DNA of 64,000 nucleotides from assembly GCA_964621615.1 (NCBI GenBank), contig CAZUMW010000009.1, positions 24,802 to 88,801 on the forward strand. Reading direction: 5' to 3'. The first letter of the stretch is position 1, and each line of letters starts with the position of its first letter. The position numbers and the translations under genes were made by a program. The notes below the pieces were generated by a model that searched no databases, was not told the origin of the DNA, and was given only the letters and a program-made list of their open reading frames with translations. Shown here one piece after another: positions 1,767-31,616 of this stretch. The DNA comes from an uncultured Thermodesulfobacteriota bacterium. GTDB taxonomy: Bacteria; Desulfobacterota; WTBG01; CAIYCZ01; CAIRTM01.

Positions 1767-3065
1767 TCAGCGATTTTTAATTATTTCCAGGTTTTTTTGG
1801 ACTTTTTCAGCGCAAGCCCTGTCTTCGATCTGCGTATACAGCTCAAGTGAGCGGTTTAAAAAATCAACAGCATCTTCCTTGTCGCCAAGGTGATATGCAC
1901 TCATGCCGAGCGAGCACAGCGCGTGGGCTTTTTTTTCTTCCCGGCGGGCTTCGATGAAGCAGGTAAGCGCGTCGCTGTAGGCTGTGCGGGCTTTGCCGTA
2001 TATGCCGCGGCGGCGGTACAGATCGCCGAGATAGAGAAGCACATCGCCCTCCTGCTCTCTGCCGGCTGCTGATTTAAAAATCTCACGGGCTTCGCGATAC
2101 GCGGCAGCTGCCGCGTCTGTGTCGCCTTTCTGCTGAAGCTTGCCCGCCTTTTCAATAAGCGCCTCAGCCTTTGCGATGCGCTGTTTTTGCTGTCCTGGCA
2201 GGCGCTTGTAATCCTCCAGCTCAGAGAGCAGGCGATCGCTCCGGAACGCTTTCCGGTAATGCTGTTCAAGCAGTGAGCACAGCGTGAGGGCTTTTTGCTC
2301 TTCGGCGGACCTGCCGCCGGCCGCGCAGCCGCGCGCCTGCTTGAGCAGCCACACAAAAGCATCTTCAGCGTTTTTTTTCCGGCTCCGCACCAGAAGCCCG
2401 AGCCGCCGGTCGCTGCTCTGCTCCGCGGCGGCGATAAGCTCATTAATAAATTCCTCAAGAGAAAGCTCTTTTTCAAGGGGCCTGAGCTCTTCGGGCGACG
2501 GAATGTTTGCAAGGTTTTTTTTCGCAATATCAAGGACCCGGCCGTTGCCGCTTTTTTTGCTGAGCTCTATTGCTTTGCGGTAGTGATGTCCCGCCTTCCC
2601 GTAGTCACGGATAATAAAATGATAAATTGCGGCACAGTTGTTCCACGCTTCAGCCATGTCGGGGTCGAGCTCTATTGCTTTTTGAAAGAAGGTTAATGCG
2701 TTTTTGTACTTTTTGCGCATGTACAGGCTGTAGCCGAGCCCGTAGCACACAGCCGCGTTGCCGGGATTGTCCAGATAGCGTGATTCCATAAAAACAGCAG
2801 CTCCGGCGGTGTCCCCCAGGGCGCTGTAACACTGTATAATGCCCCGGTAGGGTTCAGTGCGGGCCGGCGCCTTATCTGCCGCTTTTTTGTAGATCTCGAG
2901 CGCATCGTTGTACCTGCCTGCCTCGAAAAGCTCCCCGGCCTTCGCAAGCTGCTGACCCGGCTCATGCCCGGCGTGCAGCGGCGGCAGCCCGGCTATAAAA
3001 AAAACAATCAAAAAAGCAATAAACGCTGCAGCAGCAGCTGATGATTCGGCTGTGTATCGGATCAT
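1767..3065 (-). CDS. Exported tetratricopeptide-repeat protein
   Basis: Signal-peptide-like N-terminus from ATG 3065 (MIRY..AFIAFLIVFFIAG) and multiple TPRs (YGLGYSLY, AEAWNNCA, LLYLGDLY, ALCSLG). The track start at 3284 overlaps the upstream gene and is unlikely. Confidence 0.8.
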   Translation of the reverse strand: MIRYTAESSAAAAAFIAFLIVFFIAGLPPLHAGHEPGQQLAKAGELFEAGRYNDALEIYKKAADKAPARTEPYRGIIQCYSALGDTAGAAVFMESRYLDNPGNAAVCYGLGYSLYMRKKYKNALTFFQKAIELDPDMAEAWNNCAAIYHFIIRDYGKAGHHYRKAIELSKKSGNGRVLDIAKKNLANIPSPEELRPLEKELSLEEFINELIAAAEQSSDRRLGLLVRSRKKNAEDAFVWLLKQARGCAAGGRSAEEQKALTLCSLLEQHYRKAFRSDRLLSELEDYKRLPGQQKQRIAKAEALIEKAGKLQQKGDTDAAAAAYREAREIFKSAAGREQEGDVLLYLGDLYRRRGIYGKARTAYSDALTCFIEARREEKKAHALCSLGMSAYHLGDKEDAVDFLNRSLELYTQIEDRACAEKVQKNLEIIKNR

Positions 3066-3168
3066 GGCAGGTTGCCTGCAGTGGTAATAGCCGGGCCGTT
3101 GATACAGCCTTTCCTGATGCAGCGGCGCCGCATGCTGCGGGCGCGGCAGCAGCGGGCGGGCCGGATGC

Positions 3169-3603: not shown

Positions 3604-4047
3604 TTAGAGGTAGTCACCGCGGTTGAATTTGATGATTTCGACCGAAGAGCGGATAAGCACCTCATCAAGTACCGGCTTTATTTCGTCATGCGGCGGCAGT
3701 GTTTCGGAAACGCTTTTGAGGGAGTCGGTTTCACGTTCGAGGTCGTGAACAACAGGGGAAATATCTTTCAGTGCGGATGCGCTGCCGAGCTTGCGGGAAT
3801 AGGTCTCCATGAGATCCAGCAGTGAGGAAATGCGTGAAGCCAGCGAGTCGTGGTCCTGGACGGTTTCCAGAGCGACTCTGGCGGCGGCGTTCAGGGCCTG
3901 CAGATCCGGTACAGACGATGCTTTAGCGGCCTTTGGTGCCATGTTTTTCTGAAGGTGTGCCTCAAACGCCGCTTTATTGCTTCCGGTGTGTTTTTTGTGT
4001 TCCGGAGCGGCTTTGTTGACTATGTTTCCGGGATCGGAAATTTTCAT
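3604..4047 (-). CDS. Hypothetical protein, helical, 147 aa
   Basis: Clean ORF preceded by a GGGGG RBS-like run, co-oriented with neighbours; no family recognised. Confidence 0.65.
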   Translation of the reverse strand: MKISDPGNIVNKAAPEHKKHTGSNKAAFEAHLQKNMAPKAAKASSVPDLQALNAAARVALETVQDHDSLASRISSLLDLMETYSRKLGSASALKDISPVVHDLERETDSLKSVSETLPPHDEIKPVLDEVLIRSSVEIIKFNRGDYL

Positions 4048-4128
4048 CGGAACCCCCTGAAAAAACGATGTTATGATTATATGTATCGTCGAAAAACAAG
4101 CAAAAGTAAAGTGAAAAAATTACATATA

Positions 4129-4881
4129 TCAGGAGCGCCGCTGTTGTTCGGATACGCCCCTCGGAAGATCCTGGCGCAGATGCTTCTTAAACCAGAAAAG
4201 ACTTTTTTCAACAGCGGCCTCCCGGTCCGCAGGCCTGCTGATCGAGTGGTCGCCTGAGGGAAAAATAATAAGTTCTTTTGGCTGGTTAACGCGGGAAATG
4301 ATATTTTCAGCGTGAGCGGCCGGCACAATGGCATCCTGTTTGCCGTGTATGACCTGCACGGTATGAAGGCGCTTGAGCGCCGGCAGCGGATCATATGCTG
4401 CGGTATCCGAAAAAAAAGAGTGGCTGAGCTTATCCAGGTCCTGCTGTGGAACCGTGTGAAAAATGTCTTCGATGATGCAGGGGGCGGCCCACAGAGAGAC
4501 GGCCTGCACAGGGCTCTGCGCTGCAAAGAAAATGGAGACGAAGCCGCCGAACGAGCTGCCGAGGATGCCGCGCGACGTGCCGATTCGGGGGTGGCTGCTC
4601 ACGTAGCCGGCAACTGCCGTCAGATCCTGCAGGCGGCCGGATGCTGTTGTTTCCGCGATTGTTCCCGAGCTTTCGCCGCAGCCGGCAAAATCAAATAGCG
4701 CCACCGCAATGCCGCTCCGGGAAAAGCGTTCGGCAATTGCAGCGAATTTATCGCTTGCTTTTGAGCTGAACAGGCCATGGCAGGTGATGACGCAGGGCGG
4801 ATTGCTGATGTCAGGAATATGCAGCACGCCGCTTATGGTGTGGCTGCCTTCCGACAGGAGAAAGGGCTCTTTGCGGATCAT
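4129..4881 (-). CDS. Alpha/beta hydrolase
   Basis: CHGLFS, nucleophile elbow GSSFGG, and HGKQD and GDH acid/His motifs. Confidence 0.88.
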   Translation of the reverse strand: MIRKEPFLLSEGSHTISGVLHIPDISNPPCVITCHGLFSSKASDKFAAIAERFSRSGIAVALFDFAGCGESSGTIAETTASGRLQDLTAVAGYVSSHPRIGTSRGILGSSFGGFVSIFFAAQSPVQAVSLWAAPCIIEDIFHTVPQQDLDKLSHSFFSDTAAYDPLPALKRLHTVQVIHGKQDAIVPAAHAENIISRVNQPKELIIFPSGDHSISRPADREAAVEKSLFWFKKHLRQDLPRGVSEQQRRS

Positions 4882-4910
4882 TTTTTACGCTGTATTGCTA
4901 TGGGGACGCC

Positions 4911-5900
4911 TTATGCTTCGCTGCTGCTGTTGTCGCTTTCGGCGCTGTCTGCATCAGGGGCCGACTCTTCAGCCTGCTTAAGGGTGCTCAGCTCAGGGCA
5001 GATTTTTTTGAGCCGGTGCTTTTCTACAAGATAGACGGTCTTTTTGCCTGCGACGCGGCAGTAGTGCTGATAGGCGTTCTTTTCTTTGCCCATCTCAAGC
5101 GTGTAGGTTGTGCCGCCGCTGCACAAAGCAGACATGGTCCGCACCGGGCGGTCGAGCCCGAATTCTTCCGGCGATCCCTTCGCAAAGCCGGCTGCCTCCA
5201 TGCCCGCAAATGCCTGCACCGCTTTGGCTGCTTCATCCTGGTTGGCTGTAAAGGTTTCCGGCCCGGTAACCTGCCAGATGCCGCTGTCGGCTTTTGCAAG
5301 CTGGAGGGTTTTGTCGCCGGAAACGGTGATCTTTGTTATCTTTTTTGTGTCGATGCTGAATATTGTTTTATCCCGCCACCCCTCGATTTTTTTATTGAAA
5401 TCATTTTTGACAATGCCGGCGGCGAGCATTACACGATTGCGGTCGTGCCTGCGGATATACGTGCTGAAAACATCGGGGCCGTTTTTGCCGATAAAAAAGT
5501 GTGCCAGCTGATTGCCGGAGGAATCCTCTATCAGAACCTCAACCCCCTTTTCGCCGGTAACCTCAAAATTGTCGAAATTATCGGGGTTTTGAGAGGCAAC
5601 CGTATCGCTTCGAAGGGAGCCAACAGCGCTCAGCATTTTGTTTACCGCCGATGTGTCGGCAGAAAATGTTTCATTGTCAGCCGCGACTGTCCAGGATTTT
5701 GTGCCGTTTTTTGTAAACTGAAACAGTGCCGTGTCGGGAGCCGTCAGGGTTATGGAAGCGGCCTGCTCCTTTTTGAATTCGGGAAACAAAAGAGGCGGCG
5801 CCTCTTTTTTGCCGCTTTCGGCCGGGCGCTCGATAATGTAATACAGCACTCCCAGAATCAGAAAGGCTCCTGCCAGTAGTGCAAGGCGTTTTAGTTGCAT
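4911..5900 (-). CDS. DUF4340 domain protein (Gld-like ABC accessory)
   Basis: N-terminal anchor and two repeated domains (FEVTG../FGLDRP..); last gene of a GldA/F/G-like cluster. Confidence 0.75.
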   Translation of the reverse strand: MQLKRLALLAGAFLILGVLYYIIERPAESGKKEAPPLLFPEFKKEQAASITLTAPDTALFQFTKNGTKSWTVAADNETFSADTSAVNKMLSAVGSLRSDTVASQNPDNFDNFEVTGEKGVEVLIEDSSGNQLAHFFIGKNGPDVFSTYIRRHDRNRVMLAAGIVKNDFNKKIEGWRDKTIFSIDTKKITKITVSGDKTLQLAKADSGIWQVTGPETFTANQDEAAKAVQAFAGMEAAGFAKGSPEEFGLDRPVRTMSALCSGGTTYTLEMGKEKNAYQHYCRVAGKKTVYLVEKHRLKKICPELSTLKQAEESAPDADSAESDNSSSEA

Positions 5901-5948
5901 GGTACAGCCCCCGTGCTGATTGAAAAGGAAACAGTCGGAAAAGAGGGG

Positions 5949-7586
5949 TTACAGAACAATGCCCCTTCGTTTGCGCCGCCTGCGCGCGTATGCCTGAAAA
6001 AGGCCGAAGACCGCAAGCGCTGCAGGAACGGCAAGCAGGTTAATATAGCGGACAGCGGTTTTTGTGCTGTCAGACGTAATATGCAGCGGCCGCTCGCCGG
6101 CTTCCCGCGAGCGTATATCCATCAAATAGTCACCCAGTATAAACCAGTCCATCGCGTTCAGAAAAAAGCTCCGGTTACCCTCGAAGCGTGCAGGAAACTG
6201 GCCGGTGATGAAGCGCGCATTACCCACAACGATTATTTGTGTTTCAGGGCTTTTAGCAGTGATTGTCCGCGGCTCGCCGGGCTCGCTTTTGTCCTGTCCG
6301 GCCGTTTCTTCCGTGGCGGTTGCATTGTCGTTGTCTTTTAACTCTGCCTCGGGGACGGCTTTGCCCGTAAAAAAGCTGTCAAACCTGCCCGACAGCTCGA
6401 CGGCCACGGTGCGCTTTGTGAGGCTCCCCGGTGACGGCTGAAAGGGCTGCTGGGGGTTGAGGTTGAAATAGCCCTTTTGCGTCCAGCTGTGCTCGGTTGT
6501 TTGTGCGATAACGGTGGCGCTGACGCTGCTGTTATCGGCGACAACCTCAAGCGGGCTCGGCCACGGCAGAACCATGCTTTCAAGGCGGCTGATTATAGGG
6601 TGGTCGGTTTCGGTGCTTTGCCGCAGAATGCGCACCCAGAACGGATAGGGCACCATGATATTGAACATGCCGCTCTGGAAGGAGGCCTGGGCATGGGATT
6701 TGTCAAGCACCAGCTCCGGCAGCACCTTGACGCCCCAGTGCTCGAGCAGATCCGTAACCGGCGATTCAATCAGCTGCCCCTGAAGGCCGCGCTGCTGATT
6801 TATGTCGACCCGGTCTATGAGAAACAGGGCTTTGCCGCCCGACATGACATACTGGTCTATCTCAAACAGGTCCCGGTCAGTGAGCTTTCTGGGGGAGGCA
6901 ACCACCAGCGCCGCGATATCATCCGGTATCGGCTTGCCGCCTTCGGTGGAAACGGTTTTTGTCCAGTACTGTTCTTTGAGGGCGCCATTGATTGCGCTGA
7001 GCTCGCTGTGCAGGCCGGGCTCGCCGTGTCCGGTCAGAAAGCCGATGGTCTCCACGGTGTCGCGGGTGACCCGCAGGATTTTGCTGGTAAGGTCATATTC
7101 CAGAGAAACTGTATCCGTCAGGGCGGGAATAACCTCTTTGTTGTCTCCGTACAGAACGGCAAGGCCCATGTACACATTGGTCATCGCCGCCTGATTTTTC
7201 TCAATGATATTGAGCCTGAGCTGAGGGATGCCCATGAAGCGAAGCTTGCGCTGCAGCATGGGGTCATCTGTCGGGTCGATATACTCGACGGCGATATTGC
7301 CCTCACCGTAAATTTCATATTCGGCGATGATGTCTTTGATCTGACTGGTGACGGTAACCATGTAGGGGGGCAGATCCTTTGACAGATATACCTTGATGTT
7401 GACGATATCATCAAGATCGCTGAGCATCTGACGGGTTGACTCCGAGATGGTGAATCGCTTGTTTTCCGTCAGGTCCGCGCGAAAAAAGTGGCGGTAGGAA
7501 AACGCGTTGACAACGCCCAGAATGCCCGCCAGCAGGAGAACCATGAGGACGACGTTTGTTCCGTATGCAGCTTTTTTTAAACCCAT
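5949..7586 (-). CDS. GldG-family ABC transporter auxiliary protein
   Basis: RADLTENKRFTISEST, EYDLTS, IGFLTGHGEP, IDQYVMSGG, FFLNAMDW and a C-terminal TM followed by RRRKRR. Confidence 0.88.
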   Translation of the reverse strand: MGLKKAAYGTNVVLMVLLLAGILGVVNAFSYRHFFRADLTENKRFTISESTRQMLSDLDDIVNIKVYLSKDLPPYMVTVTSQIKDIIAEYEIYGEGNIAVEYIDPTDDPMLQRKLRFMGIPQLRLNIIEKNQAAMTNVYMGLAVLYGDNKEVIPALTDTVSLEYDLTSKILRVTRDTVETIGFLTGHGEPGLHSELSAINGALKEQYWTKTVSTEGGKPIPDDIAALVVASPRKLTDRDLFEIDQYVMSGGKALFLIDRVDINQQRGLQGQLIESPVTDLLEHWGVKVLPELVLDKSHAQASFQSGMFNIMVPYPFWVRILRQSTETDHPIISRLESMVLPWPSPLEVVADNSSVSATVIAQTTEHSWTQKGYFNLNPQQPFQPSPGSLTKRTVAVELSGRFDSFFTGKAVPEAELKDNDNATATEETAGQDKSEPGEPRTITAKSPETQIIVVGNARFITGQFPARFEGNRSFFLNAMDWFILGDYLMDIRSREAGERPLHITSDSTKTAVRYINLLAVPAALAVFGLFQAYARRRRKRRGIVL

Positions 7587-24433: not shown

Positions 24434-24579
24434 AGCATGAAGCGCGGAGGCGGTGCTTTTGCTGTATTCGCATACATGCCGGGTACCCGCAGTGTGAGCC
24501 GGGCGCCCAGTGCCTGCAGCGCGGGCGCGTATGACAACGAGGCCGGACTGTGTGCCTCACAGGTGCGGAGAAACACACA

Positions 24580-25191
24580 ATGCCTGCCGGCTGTGACGAA
24601 AAAGAGCTTCTGAATCAGTGTATAGCAGGCCGTGCCGATGCCTGGCACCGGTTCATCGAGCGCTATTCCTCCCTTATTTATTTTGCAATTCATGCCGTCA
24701 TGAAAAGCAGGTCTCCCGGCTCCCCGGGTGATGAAATTAACGATCTGCACAATGATGTGCTCCTGTCGCTGATGGAGAAAAACGGCCGAAAGCTCCGCCA
24801 GTATGAGGGCAAAAACGGCTGCACGGTATCCACCTGGATCAGGGTTATCGCAGTGCGGATGACAATCGACCATTTGAGAAAACAAAAAGATGAGATTTCT
24901 GTTTCAGATCAGCAGCCCCGGCCCCAGCCCGAACCTGCCGCCGACGGGGGCTCACGCATGCTGGATGCGCTCGAGGAGAAGGAAAAACAGGCGATCATGG
25001 ATGAGCTTATCGCAGAGCTCCCTGCGCGGGACCGCTTTTTTTTACGGCTTTTTTATTATGAACGGGTCCCGACCCCCCAGATAGCATCGCTTCTCAAGAC
25101 GACAAACAATGCCGTGTACAGCAAAGCACACTATATTAAAGATAAGCTCAAGGCGGCGGTGGAAAAAAAAGTTTCACAGAAAAAGCGCTAG
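24580..25191 (+). CDS. ECF-type RNA polymerase sigma-70 factor
   Basis: Region 2 (AWHRFIERY, DLHNDVLL, TWIRVIAVRMTIDHLRK) and region 4 (LPARDRFFLRLFYY..IASLL..VYS..LK) only; about 203 aa; GGAG RBS. Confidence 0.92.
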   Translation: MPAGCDEKELLNQCIAGRADAWHRFIERYSSLIYFAIHAVMKSRSPGSPGDEINDLHNDVLLSLMEKNGRKLRQYEGKNGCTVSTWIRVIAVRMTIDHLRKQKDEISVSDQQPRPQPEPAADGGSRMLDALEEKEKQAIMDELIAELPARDRFFLRLFYYERVPTPQIASLLKTTNNAVYSKAHYIKDKLKAAVEKKVSQKKR

Positions 25192-25263
25192 CCGCCGTCT
25201 ATAAGTGTGTACAAGAACTGCTGCGCACATTCAGGGTACCGCTCCCGGGGGATTATTGCTTCC

Positions 25264-25965
25264 ATGGAACAGCTTATTGCCGGTTATTTTAAAAAAAACA
25301 AGGAAAATCAAAATGCGCTGCCCTGTCCGTCAGAGGAGACCCTCTGGGACTATATGAGCGGAAGGCTTCCGGCACGGGCGTCGGAACAGGTTGCGCAGCA
25401 TTTGTGCAGCTGCGATCTGTGTGCCCGGACTCTGGTTGCCGCGGCTGAAACCGAGCCGCCTGCCCTTGAGGAGGTGCCGGGCCAGGGATGTGCTCCCCTG
25501 GTCAGCAGGCGGGTTCTGCAGCAGATCCCCCAGCCGGTGAGCGCCGGATGGCGGGGATGGGGGCGCGCCCTCGCAGAGCGTATCCGCGAAGCGGCGGGCG
25601 CCGCTGCCGGGTGGCTGTATCCCGCCTCTGCCGAGTATGTGTATGTGCGCGGAAGAACGCACGTCATATCAAAAAACCTTGTTGTTCTTGAAAAAGAATT
25701 TAAAGATATAACGCTTGAAATCGAGCTGGAAAAGACCGATACACAGAGTACCGATATAAAAGTGTATGCCCGGCGCCCGGGAATCGGAGCCCCGGCGGAC
25801 GGCCTGAGAATAAACCTGTACGCCGGCGATGCGGAAACGGCTTCCTGTGTGACGCACCGGGGGGAGGCGCTTTTTGAGCAGCTCGGATTCGGTGAATACC
25901 GGCTTCGGGTGATGGAGAACGAAAAAAACCGGGGTGAAGTGTTACTTACCATCAAGGAGCAATAG
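25264..25965 (+). CDS. Soluble zf-HC2 (ZAS) anti-sigma factor with a C-terminal Ig-like domain
   Basis: CPSEETLWDYMSG..HLCSCDLC (HxxxCxxC); no TM segment; beta-rich C-terminus (LRINLY..ALFEQLGFGEYRL); directly follows the sigma gene. Confidence 0.85.
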   Translation: MEQLIAGYFKKNKENQNALPCPSEETLWDYMSGRLPARASEQVAQHLCSCDLCARTLVAAAETEPPALEEVPGQGCAPLVSRRVLQQIPQPVSAGWRGWGRALAERIREAAGAAAGWLYPASAEYVYVRGRTHVISKNLVVLEKEFKDITLEIELEKTDTQSTDIKVYARRPGIGAPADGLRINLYAGDAETASCVTHRGEALFEQLGFGEYRLRVMENEKNRGEVLLTIKEQ

Positions 25966-25967
25966 CC

Positions 25968-28900
25968 ATGGCCGAGGACAGAGAGCAAAAACAGACCCGG
26001 GGTGCTTCAGCAGAGCCCGCCGGCATAGAGCAGCTGCTTGCCGACCGTCAGAAAATAGACGAGGAGCTGAAAGCGAAGTTTTCCCAGGACGTGACGGTTA
26101 TGTTCACGGACATAAAGGGCTCTACCAGCTTTTTTGAAAGCTACGGCGATATTGAAGGGCGCCTGATGGTTCAAAAGCACAATGATCTGCTGTTTCCCGT
26201 TGTGCAGAAATTCGGCGGCAGGGTTATAAAGACAATCGGGGATGCCATTATGGCGGCTTTTGACAGCCCCGAAGCGGCGGTACGCGCGGGCATTGAGATG
26301 CAGAGCAACCTGCAGGAGCACAACCGCGGGAAAAAGGATAAAAAAGATCAGATTCATGTAAGAATAGGCATTAATACGGGCGAGGGCCTGGTCGAGAAAA
26401 GCGACATATTCGGCGATGTTGTCAATGTTGCCGCGCGGGTCGAATCGCTGACCGAGCCGGATGAAATTCTCGTTTCCGCACCCGTATACGACCAGGTGCG
26501 CTCAACGGATGACATTATCTGCCGCTATGCACAGCAGACCCGGGTGAAGGGCAAAGAGGAGCCTATGGATGTGTATCGGGTTATATGGGCCGAAGAGGAG
26601 TGCGCTGCGGGCGTGACCCGCGGCGCCGCGTCTGCGGCAAAGGCTGCGCGGAAGCGGGCCGCCGACCGGCGCCGGCTTGAAATCGATATCAGCAGAGACG
26701 GAACCACCATCAAAGTCTCTGCAGCCGAAAAGAGCCGGCAGACCCAGAGCACTATCAGGCCCTATGAAGAAATGCAGGTATCGATGGTCGATGTCGATCA
26801 GCGCTGCAGCGAAATCACCCAGCTTTTGAACAGGGCGAACACCCGCGGGAAGGTTTCTAAAGACATTTTAAACAAGCTTCGGGATGTGGGCAACGTGCTG
26901 TTTGACATGCTGCTGACAGCACAGACAAAGGATGCTTTGCGAAAGGCCCGCGTCGACGATCTGATTTTTCACATCGAGGACAGCCTGGTGCAGATACCCT
27001 GGGAGCTGCTTTACGACGGGGACCAGTTTCTCTGCCAGAAGTTCAATATGGGCAGGCTGGTAAAAACCAGGCGCCAGATATACGATATCAGGCAGCGAAG
27101 CCTTTCCCGCCCCCTTAAAATGCTCATTGTCTCAGACCCGCGCGGGGACCTTGCGAATTCCTCAAAAGAGGGCCGGGCCATCAGGGAACACCTCGACAGG
27201 CATGCGGAGCTGATCAGCGCCAATCAGCGAAGCGGCCAGATCACGACATCCTATCTTATGGAAAAAATCCGGAATTTTGACATCGTTCACTATGCCGGCC
27301 ACGCCGACTATGATCACGAGGATCCCTCACACAGCGGGTGGCTGCTTGCGGGCGGCAAGTTTACCTCTGCAGACATTGTCAAGCTGGCGGGCGGGCGCCC
27401 CATGCCTGCGCTTGTGTTCTGCAATGCCTGCCAGTCTGGACAGACAGAGGAGTGGAAGCTCGGCGCGCAGTACAGCCGGGAAATATTCGGCCTGGCAAAT
27501 GCCTTTCTGCTGGCCGGCGTTCAGCATTATATCGGCACCTTCTGGGAGATACTCGATGAGCCGGGCGCACACTTTGCGGAGGCATTTTACCGGTCGGTTC
27601 TAGACGGCGCCACAATCGGGGAAGCCGTGAGGCAGGCCCGCGCGGAGCTGATCAAGCAGCACGGTGAGGACACGATCGTGTGGGCCAGCTATATGCTGTA
27701 CGGCGATCCGGGAATGAGCTATTGTGATTTTGACGATGAGCAGGAAGCTGAGGAGCCGCATGATGCACAGCCCCGCGTCAGGGAAGCCGCACAGGTGCGG
27801 GGTGCGCCCAGCGACGTTGTTGCCTTTGAGACGCCGCAGCCGCGCGCTTCGCGGAGCAAATACGTTATTGCCGCAGCCGCGGCGATTGTTGCGTGCGCTG
27901 CAGCTCTTCTGCTTGCCGGACGCTTTTTCAGCTCCGGAACAGATCCCTACAGTGCGGCATATGCGCAGCTGCAGGCACATAAAGTAGAGGATGCACGAAA
28001 AGCCTTTTCAGGGCTTGCCGAAGATGACCCGCGCCGCTACGAGGGCCTTGCCGCCGTCCGCTATGAGCTCGGCGATTATGACGGATCATTTACATTAAGC
28101 TCCCGCGCTCTGGAGATAGCGCCTCACAGCGTGTATGCGCATGTGCTGCAGGGGCGGGTGCTGCTGTCCCGCGGCCGTGAGGCTGACGCGCTCCAGCACT
28201 TTCAGGCAGCAGCCGGCAAAAGCGGCGGCATCTCCTGGCAGAAGGCAGAGGCGCTGAACGGAATCGCCCGCATCTGGTCCGAGTGGGGAGATACGCAGAA
28301 AGCCATGCAGTTTTACGCCCGCGCGGCAGAGCTTAACCCGAGGAGCCCGGAAATTGTTACAAACCGTGCATTTGCCATGCAGAAAACGGGCAACACCGCC
28401 GGAGCTGTGTCCGGCTTTAAGGACGCCGCCGGCCTTAACCCGCAGGATCCCTATGCATCGGTATTCCTTGCCGAAGCGCTGAAAAAGCAGAAAGCCGAGC
28501 AGGACAGCAAGCGCCGTGAGCGCATCGACAAGCTGGTTGATGAGCTTGCGGAAAACTTTGATGCCGGCGGCGCCGCGGCCGCGCAGCAGGACACGTGGAC
28601 GTCCCGGCCGCTCACCCTCAGCTTCATAAACATAACCGGCAAAGGCGCGCCGGCGCAGCGCGAGGGCGCTGACGAGTTTTTTCTCATGCAGCTGAGCGCG
28701 CTGCTGCAGGGAAGCGGCCGGGCTCAGGTTGTCGAGCGCGAGCTTCTGGAGCAGGTGCTTCAGGAGTTGAAGCTGAGCGCAACCGATCTGGTCAATCCCG
28801 ACACCGCGGTTCGCCTGGGCAGGATTCTTTCCGCCCGCGTTATTGCCACCGGATCTATTATGCGCTATAGTAATCAAATTCAGGTCAGCCTGCGCCTCAC

Positions 28901-29267
28901 CGATACTGAAACAACCGCGCTGAAGGGCGTTATCGCGGAAAGCGGTACGGACCCTGCAGAGCTTGCCCGGCAGATCGCCGGGGAAATAACACAGCAGCTC
29001 ACGAAAGCATACCCGATCCGCGGCAGCGTTGTCGAGCTCGACGGGAATCAGCTGCTGCTCGATATCGGCAGCGCTCTGGGGGTAACGGAGGGCATGGAGT
29101 TTACGGTCCTTGACGAGGTTCGCCCGGAGAGCGGCGGGCGTATGCGGCTGCGCCCTCTGGGAACAGCGCGGATTGCATCTGTTGCTCCTGAATACGCCTA
29201 TGCCGAGCCCTCTGGGAACAGCGGGTCTTTCAAACCGGGATTGAAGGTAAAGCAGCTGGTGCAGTAA
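25968..29267 (+). CDS. Membrane protein: class III adenylate cyclase - CHAT protease - TM - TPR - CsgG-like - FlgT_C-like
   Basis: Cyclase motifs MFTDIKGST, KTIGDAIMA, RIGINTG, DIFGDVVNVAARVE; CHAT motifs PWELL, IVHYAGH, VFCNAC, AFLLAGV..IGTFW; TM VIAAAAAIVACAAALLLA; TPRs; VVERELLEQVLQELKL..LGRILSA. Confidence 0.9.
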   Translation: MAEDREQKQTRGASAEPAGIEQLLADRQKIDEELKAKFSQDVTVMFTDIKGSTSFFESYGDIEGRLMVQKHNDLLFPVVQKFGGRVIKTIGDAIMAAFDSPEAAVRAGIEMQSNLQEHNRGKKDKKDQIHVRIGINTGEGLVEKSDIFGDVVNVAARVESLTEPDEILVSAPVYDQVRSTDDIICRYAQQTRVKGKEEPMDVYRVIWAEEECAAGVTRGAASAAKAARKRAADRRRLEIDISRDGTTIKVSAAEKSRQTQSTIRPYEEMQVSMVDVDQRCSEITQLLNRANTRGKVSKDILNKLRDVGNVLFDMLLTAQTKDALRKARVDDLIFHIEDSLVQIPWELLYDGDQFLCQKFNMGRLVKTRRQIYDIRQRSLSRPLKMLIVSDPRGDLANSSKEGRAIREHLDRHAELISANQRSGQITTSYLMEKIRNFDIVHYAGHADYDHEDPSHSGWLLAGGKFTSADIVKLAGGRPMPALVFCNACQSGQTEEWKLGAQYSREIFGLANAFLLAGVQHYIGTFWEILDEPGAHFAEAFYRSVLDGATIGEAVRQARAELIKQHGEDTIVWASYMLYGDPGMSYCDFDDEQEAEEPHDAQPRVREAAQVRGAPSDVVAFETPQPRASRSKYVIAAAAAIVACAAALLLAGRFFSSGTDPYSAAYAQLQAHKVEDARKAFSGLAEDDPRRYEGLAAVRYELGDYDGSFTLSSRALEIAPHSVYAHVLQGRVLLSRGREADALQHFQAAAGKSGGISWQKAEALNGIARIWSEWGDTQKAMQFYARAAELNPRSPEIVTNRAFAMQKTGNTAGAVSGFKDAAGLNPQDPYASVFLAEALKKQKAEQDSKRRERIDKLVDELAENFDAGGAAAAQQDTWTSRPLTLSFINITGKGAPAQREGADEFFLMQLSALLQGSGRAQVVERELLEQVLQELKLSATDLVNPDTAVRLGRILSARVIATGSIMRYSNQIQVSLRLTDTETTALKGVIAESGTDPAELARQIAGEITQQLTKAYPIRGSVVELDGNQLLLDIGSALGVTEGMEFTVLDEVRPESGGRMRLRPLGTARIASVAPEYAYAEPSGNSGSFKPGLKVKQLVQ

Positions 29268-29525: not shown

Positions 29526-31616
29526 GTGACGACGGTGAAAACATACAGAATATTAGCTTTGCTGCTTGCTTCTGCGCTGCTTGTAAGCGCGGTGCCGGGG
29601 TGCAATACACCGCCTGACCCGAAGTACCGGAAGGACGGAACGCAGTACGGGGTCACGGACGGTTTGTTCCGCGACCGGTGGTGGAATTATTACGAGCGGG
29701 GCCTTTCCTTTTCCGACGGGGAATTCTGGAAAGAAGCCGCAGAGGATTTCCGGGAAGCGCTCAGGCAGCGGGACAGCGACCAGCGCCTCGCCCGGACCTA
29801 CGGAATGCACTTTACCGATTATTTTCCGCACCGGGATCTGGGGGTTGCCCTGTATCACCTGGGCCGGTTCGATGAGGCCCGGCGCGAGCTTGAGACATCG
29901 CTTGCCGCTGTAGAAACCGCGAAGGCGAAATTTTATCTGAACCGGGTCAGGAAGGCAATCATCGCCGCAAGCAATGCCGATACCGCCCGCCCCTCGATAG
30001 AGGTTTCCTCCGTTCCCGCCGATGCGGTCAGCAACAGCTTCAGCATGACGCTCGAGGGTGAAGTGGCCGATGACACATATGCAGAAAAAGTTGCGGTCAA
30101 CGAAGATCCCGTTTTTGTTGAGCTGTCTGCAAAGCGGATTCCCTTTAGCAAGAAGATCAGGCTCAAAAAAGGGCTCAATGAAATAAAAATTAAATCCACG
30201 GACCTCATGGGCAAGAAATCCGAAAAAACGGTCACTGTCTACGGCGACTATCAGGGGCCCCTTGTCAATGTCAGCAATTACGCCGACGGGCAGAAGACCG
30301 CACAGGGAAGGGTCGTCCTGCACGGATCGCTTGCAGACGCAACCGGCATCACTACCTTTAAAATCAACGAGCAGGTCCTTGCCTATAACAAAGAGCGGGA
30401 AGTGGACTTCACGTTTGCGGTGAACCTCGAGCAGGGCTCAAATGAAATCATGCTTGCGGCGACGGATACAGCGGGCAACACAACGCGCGGAACGCTCAAT
30501 CTGGTTTATGTGCCGCGCCTTGCAGAAGAGCCGGCTCCTGAGAAACCATTGTATGCAGGCGAGCCGATCCGGGTGGCCCTTCAGGGCTCGGGCGTGCTCG
30601 ACACAGGTCAGCACCGGCTGTATGCCGCAGCGCGGCCGGGGGGGGCGGCAGGCTCCTTCAGGCTGAATCTGAAAGACCTGGCGGAGACGCAGACCGTCTA
30701 TTACAAAACAATGTATATTGACGGCAGCGTTACCGGGCGCCATCCGGTTGAATCGGTTTCGGTTAACGGCGATCCGCTGATGATCATTCCGGGTAAAACA
30801 ATTTATTTTAACGAGCTTGTCGAGCTCGATGAGGGTGAAAACACGCTGAGGATAACCGTTGAAGATGCGCAGGGGAACACCGAATCCCGGACCGTCACGA
30901 TCGTCAGGCGGGTTCCCTCTGTTCATCAGGTCGACTCGCGTATGAGCATTGCCATTCTGCCGTTTGAGAAAAAGGGTGAAATCACCCCGGCCTCGGATAT
31001 TATCTATGATAATCTTATCAGCTCCTTTTTTGACCAGAACCGCTTTCATATCGTCAGCCGCGGCGAAGAGCTGGAATCAGCCCTCAGAGAGCAGAAGCTG
31101 AGCCGGACCGATCTCGTGGACAAGAGCGCCGCCGTGGAGCTGGGCAGGCTGGTCGCCGCCGAGGCGGTGCTGATGGGCTCCATTCGCGAAACCGCGGATG
31201 CCGTGGAAATCTATGCCCGGATGGTCAACACGGAAACGTCATCGCTGCTTGAGGTGAAGGACGTGTACGGTCAGGACAAATCCCTGGCAAGCCTGCAGTA
31301 TCTGACAAACGGCCTTGCGCTGAAGTTTGTGCACAGCTTTCCGCTGGTCGAGGGTATGGTGCTCAAGGTCGACGGCGACACGATATATGCTGACTTCGGT
31401 ACCGATCAGCAGATTAAAAAGGAAATGAAATTTATCGTGTTCCGGGAGGGGGAGAAAATAATTCACCCCGTAACCGGCCGGGTGCTCGGCAGCAACACCG
31501 AAGAGCTCGGCGTTGCGCGAGTGGTGAATGTGTTTGAGGATATGTCGCTCGGCAAGCTGGTTGCTGATATTGATCACGGGCTTATTAAACAAAAGGACCT
31601 CATTATTACAAAATAG
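29526..31616 (+). CDS. Lipoprotein: TPR - Ig-like repeats - CsgG-like - FlgT_C-like
   Basis: Lipobox VPGC; TPR (YFPHRDLGVALYHLG); Ig repeats with GLNEIKI / GSNEIML / GENTLRI; SIAILPFE..EQKLSRTDLVD..LGRLVAA; EGMVLKVDGD. Confidence 0.85.
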   Translation: MTTVKTYRILALLLASALLVSAVPGCNTPPDPKYRKDGTQYGVTDGLFRDRWWNYYERGLSFSDGEFWKEAAEDFREALRQRDSDQRLARTYGMHFTDYFPHRDLGVALYHLGRFDEARRELETSLAAVETAKAKFYLNRVRKAIIAASNADTARPSIEVSSVPADAVSNSFSMTLEGEVADDTYAEKVAVNEDPVFVELSAKRIPFSKKIRLKKGLNEIKIKSTDLMGKKSEKTVTVYGDYQGPLVNVSNYADGQKTAQGRVVLHGSLADATGITTFKINEQVLAYNKEREVDFTFAVNLEQGSNEIMLAATDTAGNTTRGTLNLVYVPRLAEEPAPEKPLYAGEPIRVALQGSGVLDTGQHRLYAAARPGGAAGSFRLNLKDLAETQTVYYKTMYIDGSVTGRHPVESVSVNGDPLMIIPGKTIYFNELVELDEGENTLRITVEDAQGNTESRTVTIVRRVPSVHQVDSRMSIAILPFEKKGEITPASDIIYDNLISSFFDQNRFHIVSRGEELESALREQKLSRTDLVDKSAAVELGRLVAAEAVLMGSIRETADAVEIYARMVNTETSSLLEVKDVYGQDKSLASLQYLTNGLALKFVHSFPLVEGMVLKVDGDTIYADFGTDQQIKKEMKFIVFREGEKIIHPVTGRVLGSNTEELGVARVVNVFEDMSLGKLVADIDHGLIKQKDLIITK

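Follow-up and report, generated by a model that had tools for sequence, protein, structure and literature searches.

Conserved hydrophobic-arginine-small motifs in an anti-sigma factor and an adjacent cyclase-CHAT protein as candidate cleavage sites of a membrane-tethered CHAT protease

The locus studied here raises the question of whether arginine motifs that recur between the domains of two adjacent gene products are cleavage sites of the CHAT protease that one of these genes encodes. It lies in a 64-kb stretch of contig CAZUMW010000009.1 (GCA_964621615.1) from an uncultured Thermodesulfobacteriota bacterium; this whole stretch is called the window, and all nucleotide positions refer to it. 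In the window, recJ is followed by four genes on the same strand, which encode a sigma factor of the extracytoplasmic function (ECF) type, a predicted zinc-finger anti-sigma factor, a cyclase-CHAT protein (hereafter also the protease) and a lipoprotein. A first-pass annotation had listed four [TV]-R-G motifs in the second and third of these genes, at 25645, 25995, 26616 and 27795, and had proposed them as candidate CHAT cleavage sites. We found that three of them carry a conserved linker arginine, that the catalytic dyad of the protease is intact and that the two genes are linked, and the proposal was kept for these three motifs, while the one at aa 10 of the protease is to be dropped. On sequence grounds, we see an even prospect that the motifs around R148 of the anti-sigma factor and R218 and R611 of the protease are P2-P1-P1′ sites cut by the cassette's own Arg-specific CHAT protease.

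Translation confirmed the positions of all four motifs. The anti-sigma motif V147-R148-G149 (V128-R129-G130 when numbered from ATG 25264) is encoded at 25645-25653 (+) and provides a candidate P2-P1-P1′ triplet at the junction of linker and beta-sandwich. In the protease, likewise on the + strand, T10-R11-G12 (25995-26003) lies in the N-terminal tail, T217-R218-G219 (26616-26624; candidate self-cleavage site 2) in the cyclase-CHAT linker (aa 212-226; 26601-26645), and V610-R611-G612 (27795-27803; candidate self-cleavage site 3) in the juxtamembrane linker (aa 591-630; 27738-27857). The four listed motifs are real, and a fourth [TV]RG of the protease, T292-R293-G294 in NTRGKV (26841-26849, +), had been overlooked; it falls in a loop between two helices. 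In a fairly GC-rich genome (GC about 55%), the motifs might be chance RG tripeptides. In line with this, and with the earlier caveat that RG is common and also occurs inside domains, RG dipeptides are not enriched in the protease (8 observed, 6.2 expected). One of them belongs to the CHAT loop after strand 1 (aa 387-394; 27126-27149), D-P-R-G-D-L, in which P391 and L395 are invariant and both D390 and D394 are more than 90% conserved; this conserved RG(D) adjoins the active site and is clearly no linker site. The [TV]RG triplet was observed four times against 0.67 expected (shuffle P = 0.004), a post hoc value that is weak alone.

Conservation was then compared among 115 homologs of the protease (46-71% identity) and 136 full-length representatives of the anti-sigma factor (mean column identity 25%). 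The anti-sigma arginine was kept in 134 of the 136 representatives, with V, I, L or M at P2 in 129/135 and a small residue at P1′ in 122/135 (G in 104, S in 18), and it was also present in two independent sets, 44/44 sequences from genome loci and 67/68 from metagenome loci. Apart from the Cys/His of the zinc finger and a few residues in the sandwich, nothing else in the family is as conserved as this motif. At site 2 of the protease, R218 was Arg in 114/115 homologs, preceded mostly by T (62) or V (38; together 100/115) and followed by S (36), R (31), A (21) or G (13). At site 3, R611 was Arg in 97/110 homologs and Lys in 6, with L (43), V (22), F (9), T (8) or I (7) at P2 and S (34), G (33) or A (29) at P1′. 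When the linker alone was realigned, Arg rose to 101/113 with flanking columns at no more than 45/113, and P1′ was S in 36, G in 32 and A in 29. The expectation that xRG would be conserved within variable linkers of homologs was borne out for R148, R218 and R611 and failed for R11, which was Arg in 3/37 aligned homologs; there P2 and P1′ were unconserved and the N-terminal tail was unalignable. The overlooked motif is of another kind. In N291-x-R293-G294 (26838-26849), R293 was kept in 82/115 homologs, N291 in 107/115 and G294 in 114/115, followed by [KR]-[VLI]-[ST], and the triplet lies between helices 273-289 and 298-315 with a predicted local distance difference test score (pLDDT) of about 70. 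We judged N-T292-R-G to be a structural loop just ahead of the CHAT domain.

A strict Gly at P1′ is unconserved in the protease, site 2 having S, R, A or G and site 3 S, G or A, and the sequences suggest that the motif is better given as hydrophobic/Thr-Arg-small residue than as [TV]RG. Arg was almost never swapped for Lys at the conserved sites. In this broader form, [VILMTF]R[GSA] was found in 69/115 cyclase-CHAT linkers, compared with 18.7 in composition-matched shuffles (3.7-fold; maximum 31 in 500 shuffles), and in 81/113 juxtamembrane linkers, compared with 20.3 (4-fold; maximum 32 in 500). Arginines kept at these frequencies across phyla, amid otherwise unalignable sequence, refute chance for the three sites. 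As an account of the motifs, chance is hardly credible, and it stands only for the unconserved T10-R-G.

Structure prediction places the same three arginines in flexible sequence. An AlphaFold2 model of protease aa 1-651, built on a 115-sequence alignment, had a mean pLDDT of 83.7. The only internal segments of the cytoplasmic half with pLDDT below 50 were 212-226 and 591-630, each of which holds one conserved arginine; the N-terminal tail was also low (pLDDT 55-59). The anti-sigma model contained one such segment with pLDDT below 50, residues 115-129 (numbered from ATG 25264), and its last residue is the motif arginine. According to these models, the three conserved arginines sit in predicted disorder at inter-domain boundaries.

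We further scanned 70 cyclase-CHAT proteins with a weight matrix of the anti-sigma motif (P3 to P9′). In most of them the top match was a periplasmic Y-P-hydrophobic-R-G near aa 1018, which in the window is Y1015-P-I-R-G1019 (29010-29024, +), at the start of the C-terminal beta-barrel. P1016 and G1019 of this look-alike, which serves as a control, are at least 90% conserved. An extended likeness of the anti-sigma motif to site 2 or site 3 was rejected, as neither is the best matrix match and only hydrophobic-R-small is shared. Homology of the anti-sigma beta-sandwich to the C-terminal barrel of the protease or to its CsgG-like domain was also rejected, with hhalign probabilities of 4% and 0.1%.

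The candidate enzyme is a protein of 1099 aa (25968-29267, +), whose start codon lies 2 nt past the anti-sigma stop. Its domain order is class III adenylate cyclase, a small alpha/beta domain, CHAT, a transmembrane helix, and then periplasmic TPR, CsgG/LpoB-like domain and beta-barrel. More than 1200 homologs were retrieved at E ≤ 1e-20; the top 120, from metagenome-assembled genomes of Thermodesulfobacteriota, Nitrospirota and Nitrospinota, have the full architecture. The domain calls made earlier for the cyclase, CHAT and membrane segments hold, as do the zinc finger and beta-sandwich of the upstream protein. In Pfam, Guanylate_cyc (PF00211) matched aa 36-199 (26073-26564, +) with 87 bits, and CHAT (PF12770) matched aa 306-580 (26883-27707, +) over the full profile length with 141.1 bits against a cutoff of 24; TPR and CsgG matches were obtained as well. 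The single transmembrane helix (aa 630-649; 27855-27914, +) is a helix in the AlphaFold model and a hydrophobic stretch after basic residues. By Foldseek, the cyclase domain resembled the Ma1120 adenylyl cyclase (E = 2e-16, target-normalised TM-score 0.91). Its D48, D92 and R157 are invariant, and N153, K88 and D146 are at least 90% conserved; we take these to be the two metal-binding Asp, the adenine-specifying Lys/Asp and the transition-state Asn/Arg. Profile, fold and conserved residues agree in marking the domain as a predicted class III adenylate cyclase.

The CHAT domain has an intact His-Cys dyad. H445 (27300-27302) and C488 (27429-27431) were present in 115/115 homologs, align with the catalytic His/Cys of Csx29 and lie just past the predicted strands 439-443 and 482-485. 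With its profile match and a dyad placed after strands 3 and 4, as in clan CD caspase-like proteases of the CHAT type, the domain is a predicted protease. Searches of structural databases yielded no neighbour of known specificity for the CHAT domain: Foldseek with the aa 1-651 model against PDB retrieved cyclases only, the CHAT part as a lone query matched no PDB sequence, and a profile search of the CHAT part against PDB gave weak matches only, to 8tl0 and Csx29. In the caspase fold, the loops after strands 1 and 5 hold the residues that bind P1, which are Arg in caspases and Asp/Glu in the Arg-specific MALT1. Near the dyad of the cassette protease, acidic residues are conserved in the loop after strand 1 (D390 in 107 and D394 in 109 of the 115 homologs), after the catalytic His (D447, 108) and after strand 5 (E/D527, 113; D530, 111; E/D531, 97); in the Met/Leu-specific Csx29, the equivalents of residues 527, 530 and 531 are K, S and N. 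These loops fit a pocket for a P1 Arg and mark a candidate S1 pocket by secondary-structure equivalence, which is suggestive only.

An enzyme that carries the same motif pattern as its presumed substrate might use it for self-inhibition. In this case only the anti-sigma factor would be cut, and the motifs around R218 and R611 would be pseudo-substrates that block the active site until a periplasmic signal arrives, as securin does on separase. The pattern common to substrate and enzyme, the separase/securin precedent (PMC11506125) and the retention of sites 2 and 3 in loci without a sigma/anti-sigma pair agree with this idea. Yet AlphaFold docks neither linker onto the CHAT domain, both remaining below a pLDDT of 50, and pseudo-substrates usually have no cleavable P1-P1′ pair. 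We consider this explanation improbable.

The presumed substrate follows the ECF sigma gene. The sigma factor is encoded by a 213-aa open reading frame (ORF) at 24550-25191 (+), with a probable start at ATG 24580. It matched TIGR02937 with 74.1 bits (cutoff 42.9) and Sigma70_r4_2 with 30.2 bits (Pfam cutoff 25.7), and Sigma70_r2 was slightly under its cutoff (21.3 against 24). It has regions sigma-2 and sigma-4 only, together with the TIGR02937 match, and is an ECF (group IV) sigma factor. Compared with the model of the type III-E sigma factor, it scored 27.9 bits against a cutoff of 100. The longest ORF of the anti-sigma gene has 252 aa (25207-25965, +), and its likely start, ATG 25264, gives 233 aa. 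The longest ORFs probably overstate both genes; ATG 25264 agrees with the public gene call and with the N-termini of homologs.

The anti-sigma protein has no hydrophobic or transmembrane segment. Its C-x24-H-x3-C-x2-C zinc-finger motif is conserved: the close subfamily keeps H46, C50 and C53 without exception, and these three, together with C21, are at least 90% conserved across the 136 representatives. The zf-HC2 profile gave 16.8 bits, under the cutoff of 22.2, and 30.8 bits with a homolog from the locus described below as L129. In the AlphaFold model, helices 24-63 (the zinc finger), 78-87 and 99-114 are followed by the low-confidence segment and by a beta-sandwich at 131-230 (pLDDT above 90), whose first strand is 131-136. 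Given the H-x3-C-x2-C motif, the N-terminal helices and the adjacent ECF sigma gene, this protein is a ZAS family candidate and a predicted sigma inhibitor. Foldseek with the model returned only generic matches to immunoglobulin-like (Ig-like) folds or beta-sandwiches (E about 1e-2). An exhaustive search with the anti-sigma profile retrieved up to 657 representative clusters at E ≤ 1e-10, a number that includes a few giant repeat proteins which are not anti-sigma factors. In such proteins of 1900-4000 aa (P0158, P0163, P0184 and others), anti-sigma aa 165-228 (25756-25947) matched 9-24 tandem stretches, which places the C-terminal half of the beta-sandwich in a widespread repeat-domain family.

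We then examined how strictly the genes are linked. Among anti-sigma-centred metagenome loci with at least 900 nt of downstream DNA, the cyclase-CHAT gene lay directly 3′ of the anti-sigma gene in 46/47; these loci had been found by a scan with a narrower, less diverse anti-sigma alignment. The sigma gene was directly upstream of the anti-sigma gene in 47/50 metagenome loci and also in most genome loci. Among the genome loci centred on the CHAT gene, 53 had sufficient upstream DNA, and 38 of these had the sigma/anti-sigma pair directly upstream of that gene. The fourth conserved member of the cassette, a lipoprotein of 696 aa (29526-31616, +) with the lipobox VPGC in its translation and with TPR, Ig-like repeats and a CsgG/LpoB-like domain according to Pfam, adjoins the cyclase-CHAT gene on its upstream or its downstream side in most of 80 genome loci.

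This linkage bears on the possibility that the motifs are processing sites or degrons cut by another protease, whether a housekeeping or trypsin-like enzyme or one acting through Lon/Clp adaptors, and that the CHAT domain has another substrate. When exposed in a disordered linker, an arginine is a generic target of proteases, and canonical anti-sigma factors do fall to cascades of the DegS/RseP/ClpXP type. Against this, anti-sigma and CHAT genes are adjacent almost without exception, which points to a dedicated partnership, no further protease gene is conserved in the cassette, and a generic target would need no conserved P2 and P1′. We give such an outside protease a slim chance.

Several loci depart from the common arrangement. 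The lipoprotein gene is downstream in the clade of the window and upstream of the sigma gene in most Desulfobacterales-type loci, and in three loci (L001-L003) about 1.4 kb, apparently one additional gene, separates it from the cyclase-CHAT gene. In one close homolog (L008, 7001-10270) an in-frame stop lies right after the CHAT domain (GFSYL*LEQ); at this locus sigma and anti-sigma are lost and recJ abuts the cyclase-CHAT gene, which is either a decaying copy or else a natural soluble cyclase-CHAT. At L009 the anti-sigma factor is reduced to an 80-aa remnant. The sole anti-sigma-centred locus without a cyclase-CHAT gene (L129) has sigma at 1781-2398, anti-sigma at 2493-3164 with the motif V-A-V-R-G-P, and a convergent neighbour at 3927-6296 (-) that encodes 789 aa of Lgt fused to Peptidase_C25, of the gingipain family in clan CD. 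Peptidase_C25 is a clan CD family with Arg/Lys specificity. This single anecdote may reflect an exchange of one membrane-tethered clan CD protease for another.

Observed here are conserved motifs that fall in predicted disorder, linkage of the genes and an intact dyad, and from these we infer that the motifs are cut, by this protease and with the following consequences. The TPR/CsgG-like part and the lipoprotein would jointly sense a periplasmic signal, and this signal would activate the protease. The protease would cut the anti-sigma factor after R148, between the sigma-binding zinc-finger domain and the beta-sandwich. By analogy with Csx30 and RseA, the sigma-binding fragment would be destabilised or degraded and the ECF sigma factor freed. 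A cut at R611 would release the cyclase-CHAT part from the membrane, as follows geometrically from its position, and a cut at R218 would part the cyclase from the protease. Since class III cyclases act as dimers, dimerisation is a possible route of coupling, which is speculation.

Several points weigh against cleavage by the cassette's protease. All support for it is comparative, and the S1-pocket argument is based on secondary-structure equivalence, not superposition. Known CHAT proteases have no common specificity, craspases cutting after Met or Leu. P1′ is unlike between the sites, being mostly G in the anti-sigma factor and, at site 2, frequently R. In the anti-sigma factor, the arginine directly adjoins the first beta-strand of the sandwich, where a structural or sigma-contacting role is possible, and a cut C-terminal to the sigma-binding domain alone frees no sigma, so that an extra degradation step must be assumed. 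The look-alike Y-P-hydrophobic-R-G is periplasmic and beyond the reach of a cytoplasmic protease; because it opens a beta-barrel, hydrophobic-R-G before a strand can be purely structural. At site 3, finally, the arginine is followed 5-9 positions on by a conserved [ED]-x-[VI]-x-F (D616-x-V618-x-F620; aa 615-620, 27810-27827), and this tail was found in 25/38 loci with the sigma/anti-sigma pair compared with 2/15 without (Fisher P = 7e-4, with kinship ignored).

These features invite the explanation that the motifs stay uncut and serve for binding or structure. In the anti-sigma factor, the arginine would anchor or cap the first strand or contact sigma, R611 and its tail would form a docking strand, for example for the anti-sigma beta-sandwich or for dimerisation, and R218 would be part of a basic hinge. 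Strand 131-136 directly after the anti-sigma arginine, the barrel look-alike as top match of the anti-sigma matrix, the conservation on the C-terminal side of site 3 with its correlation to the sigma/anti-sigma pair, and a Lys/Arg-rich stretch that follows site 2 all agree with such roles. The low pLDDT around all three arginines speaks against them, as do the strict preference for Arg over Lys and the fact that hydrophobic-Arg-small recurs in three linkers unrelated to one another, within two proteins nearly always co-encoded. Moreover, the anti-sigma and periplasmic barrel domains are not homologous, as found with hhalign. The R[GSA] core of site 3 was kept in 33/38 loci with the sigma/anti-sigma pair and in 12/15 without it, indicating that R611 is not merely a residue for docking the anti-sigma factor. 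Together, the counts for tail and core suggest a strand for docking that goes with the anti-sigma factor, alongside an arginine with an intrinsic role. We regard uncut binding or structural elements as a serious rival explanation, though a less likely one than cleavage.

If the motifs are cleaved as proposed, one proteolytic event could serve two outputs. The locus would then encode an envelope sensor that couples the ECF regulon, through the cut in the anti-sigma factor, with cyclic AMP (cAMP) signalling, through self-cutting that frees cyclase and protease, and the tail after R611 would dock the anti-sigma factor. This extension is tentative and, in our judgement, unlikely as a whole; if true, it would describe a previously undescribed kind of sensor that is widespread in Thermodesulfobacteriota and Nitrospirota.

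The other genes of the window are those of an ordinary chromosome and include PGI, RecJ, ClpB, glycogen phosphorylase, histidine kinases and a TonB receptor. A repeat search found no CRISPR array in the window, and no cas-family match occurred among 20 neighbouring ORFs scanned against Pfam, two of which had no match at all. A PADLOC scan assigned no defence system; the cyclase domain only generically matched Pycsar cyclases, and the CHAT region gave one weak match to BovA (E 1e-4). We also sought a conserved ECF-type promoter 5′ of the sigma gene in eight close loci, where the intergenic regions were too diverged for alignment.

Control of a sigma factor by a CHAT protease has been shown only in CRISPR type III-E and is merely proposed for DdvA, and the present locus suggests the same logic outside any defence island, in a large uncharacterised family. 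A literature search for a system joining ECF sigma, CHAT and cyclase returned only Craspase, DdvA, SAVED-CHAT and HetF, none of which pairs a cyclase-CHAT protein with an ECF sigma/anti-sigma pair. What is new here is a chromosomal, CRISPR-independent combination of a cytoplasmic, membrane-tethered and cyclase-fused CHAT domain with a soluble ZAS anti-sigma factor, and the cyclase fusion raises the possibility of coupled proteolysis and cAMP signalling.

Separase had been cited as the precedent for cleavage after Arg. This holds, in that separases cut after Arg in (S/D/E)xExxR, with craspases cutting after Met or Leu (PMC11506125). Separase (C50, clan CD) also resembles the proposed system in cutting within an unstructured motif, in self-cleavage and in pseudo-substrate control. 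It differs in being eukaryotic and in its regulation and domain context, and its consensus with P4 Glu is not matched at site 2, site 3 or the anti-sigma site, where P4 is G/A/P/T, A/G/M and A/V, respectively. A better precedent, and a prokaryotic one, is HetF. This founding CHAT protease cuts PatU3 between R117 and S118 (T-N-Y-R|S-P-E); PatU3 with R117 substituted resists HetF, and cleavage is weaker with S118A (PMC9457339). Like the cassette protease, HetF is a prokaryotic membrane-associated CHAT protein, it has a single specific substrate, and it cuts a hydrophobic (aromatic)-Arg-small sequence of the kind found in the motifs here. Compared by description only, it differs in that its substrate is a regulator of cell division and heterocysts and in that it has no cyclase fusion or sigma partner. 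If our proposal is true, the cassette protease would be the second Arg-specific prokaryotic CHAT protease after HetF.

A close functional parallel is Craspase, whose TPR-CHAT protease Csx29 cleaves Csx30, a soluble protein by which an ECF-like sigma factor (CASP-sigma) is held inactive. The cut falls in a flexible loop beyond the domain that binds sigma, and the N-terminal fragment of Csx30 was undetected on expression in E. coli, which fits the authors' degradation hypothesis (PMC10028731). The cassette, as proposed, resembles it in that a signal-activated CHAT protease targets the soluble inhibitor of an ECF-type sigma factor, and the catalytic His/Cys of the two enzymes align. Craspase works with Cas7-11, crRNA, Csx30 and Csx31, none of which is present at the window locus, and Csx29 cuts after Met/Leu instead of Arg. 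The cassette protease, in contrast, is membrane-anchored, fused to a cyclase and equipped with a periplasmic sensor part, and the inhibitor is a classical zinc-finger anti-sigma factor.

DdvA of Myxococcus xanthus combines an anti-sigma factor and a periplasmic TPR-CHAT part in one protein. Its juxtamembrane self-cleavage, as an initial step towards sigma release, is hypothesised only, and DdvA-like proteins are reported to be confined to Myxococcota and one Comamonas species (PMC11506125), unlike the cassette with its occurrence in Thermodesulfobacteriota, Nitrospirota and Nitrospinota. In the DdvA/DdvS system, as predicted for the cassette, a zinc-finger anti-sigma domain of the CHCC type holds an ECF sigma factor, and a CHAT domain occurs with a flexible juxtamembrane linker. 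In DdvA the CHAT domain is periplasmic, lies inside the anti-sigma factor itself and has an incomplete active site, whereas in the cassette it is cytoplasmic and fused to a cyclase in a separate protein, and the anti-sigma factor is soluble.

Canonical anti-sigma factors are degraded by cascades of the DegS/RseP/ClpXP type (PMC11506125, PMC10028731). In the action of DegS/RseP/ClpXP on RseA and of CalpL on CalpT, as proposed for the cassette, a signal-dependent cut frees an ECF sigma factor and the sigma-bound fragment needs further degradation. The classical targets are membrane-spanning and are cut by serine proteases or metalloproteases, whereas in the cassette the anti-sigma target would be soluble and the cut would be made in the cytoplasm, by a membrane-tethered, caspase-like cysteine protease. 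If true, this mechanism would be unlike the classical DegS/RseP route.

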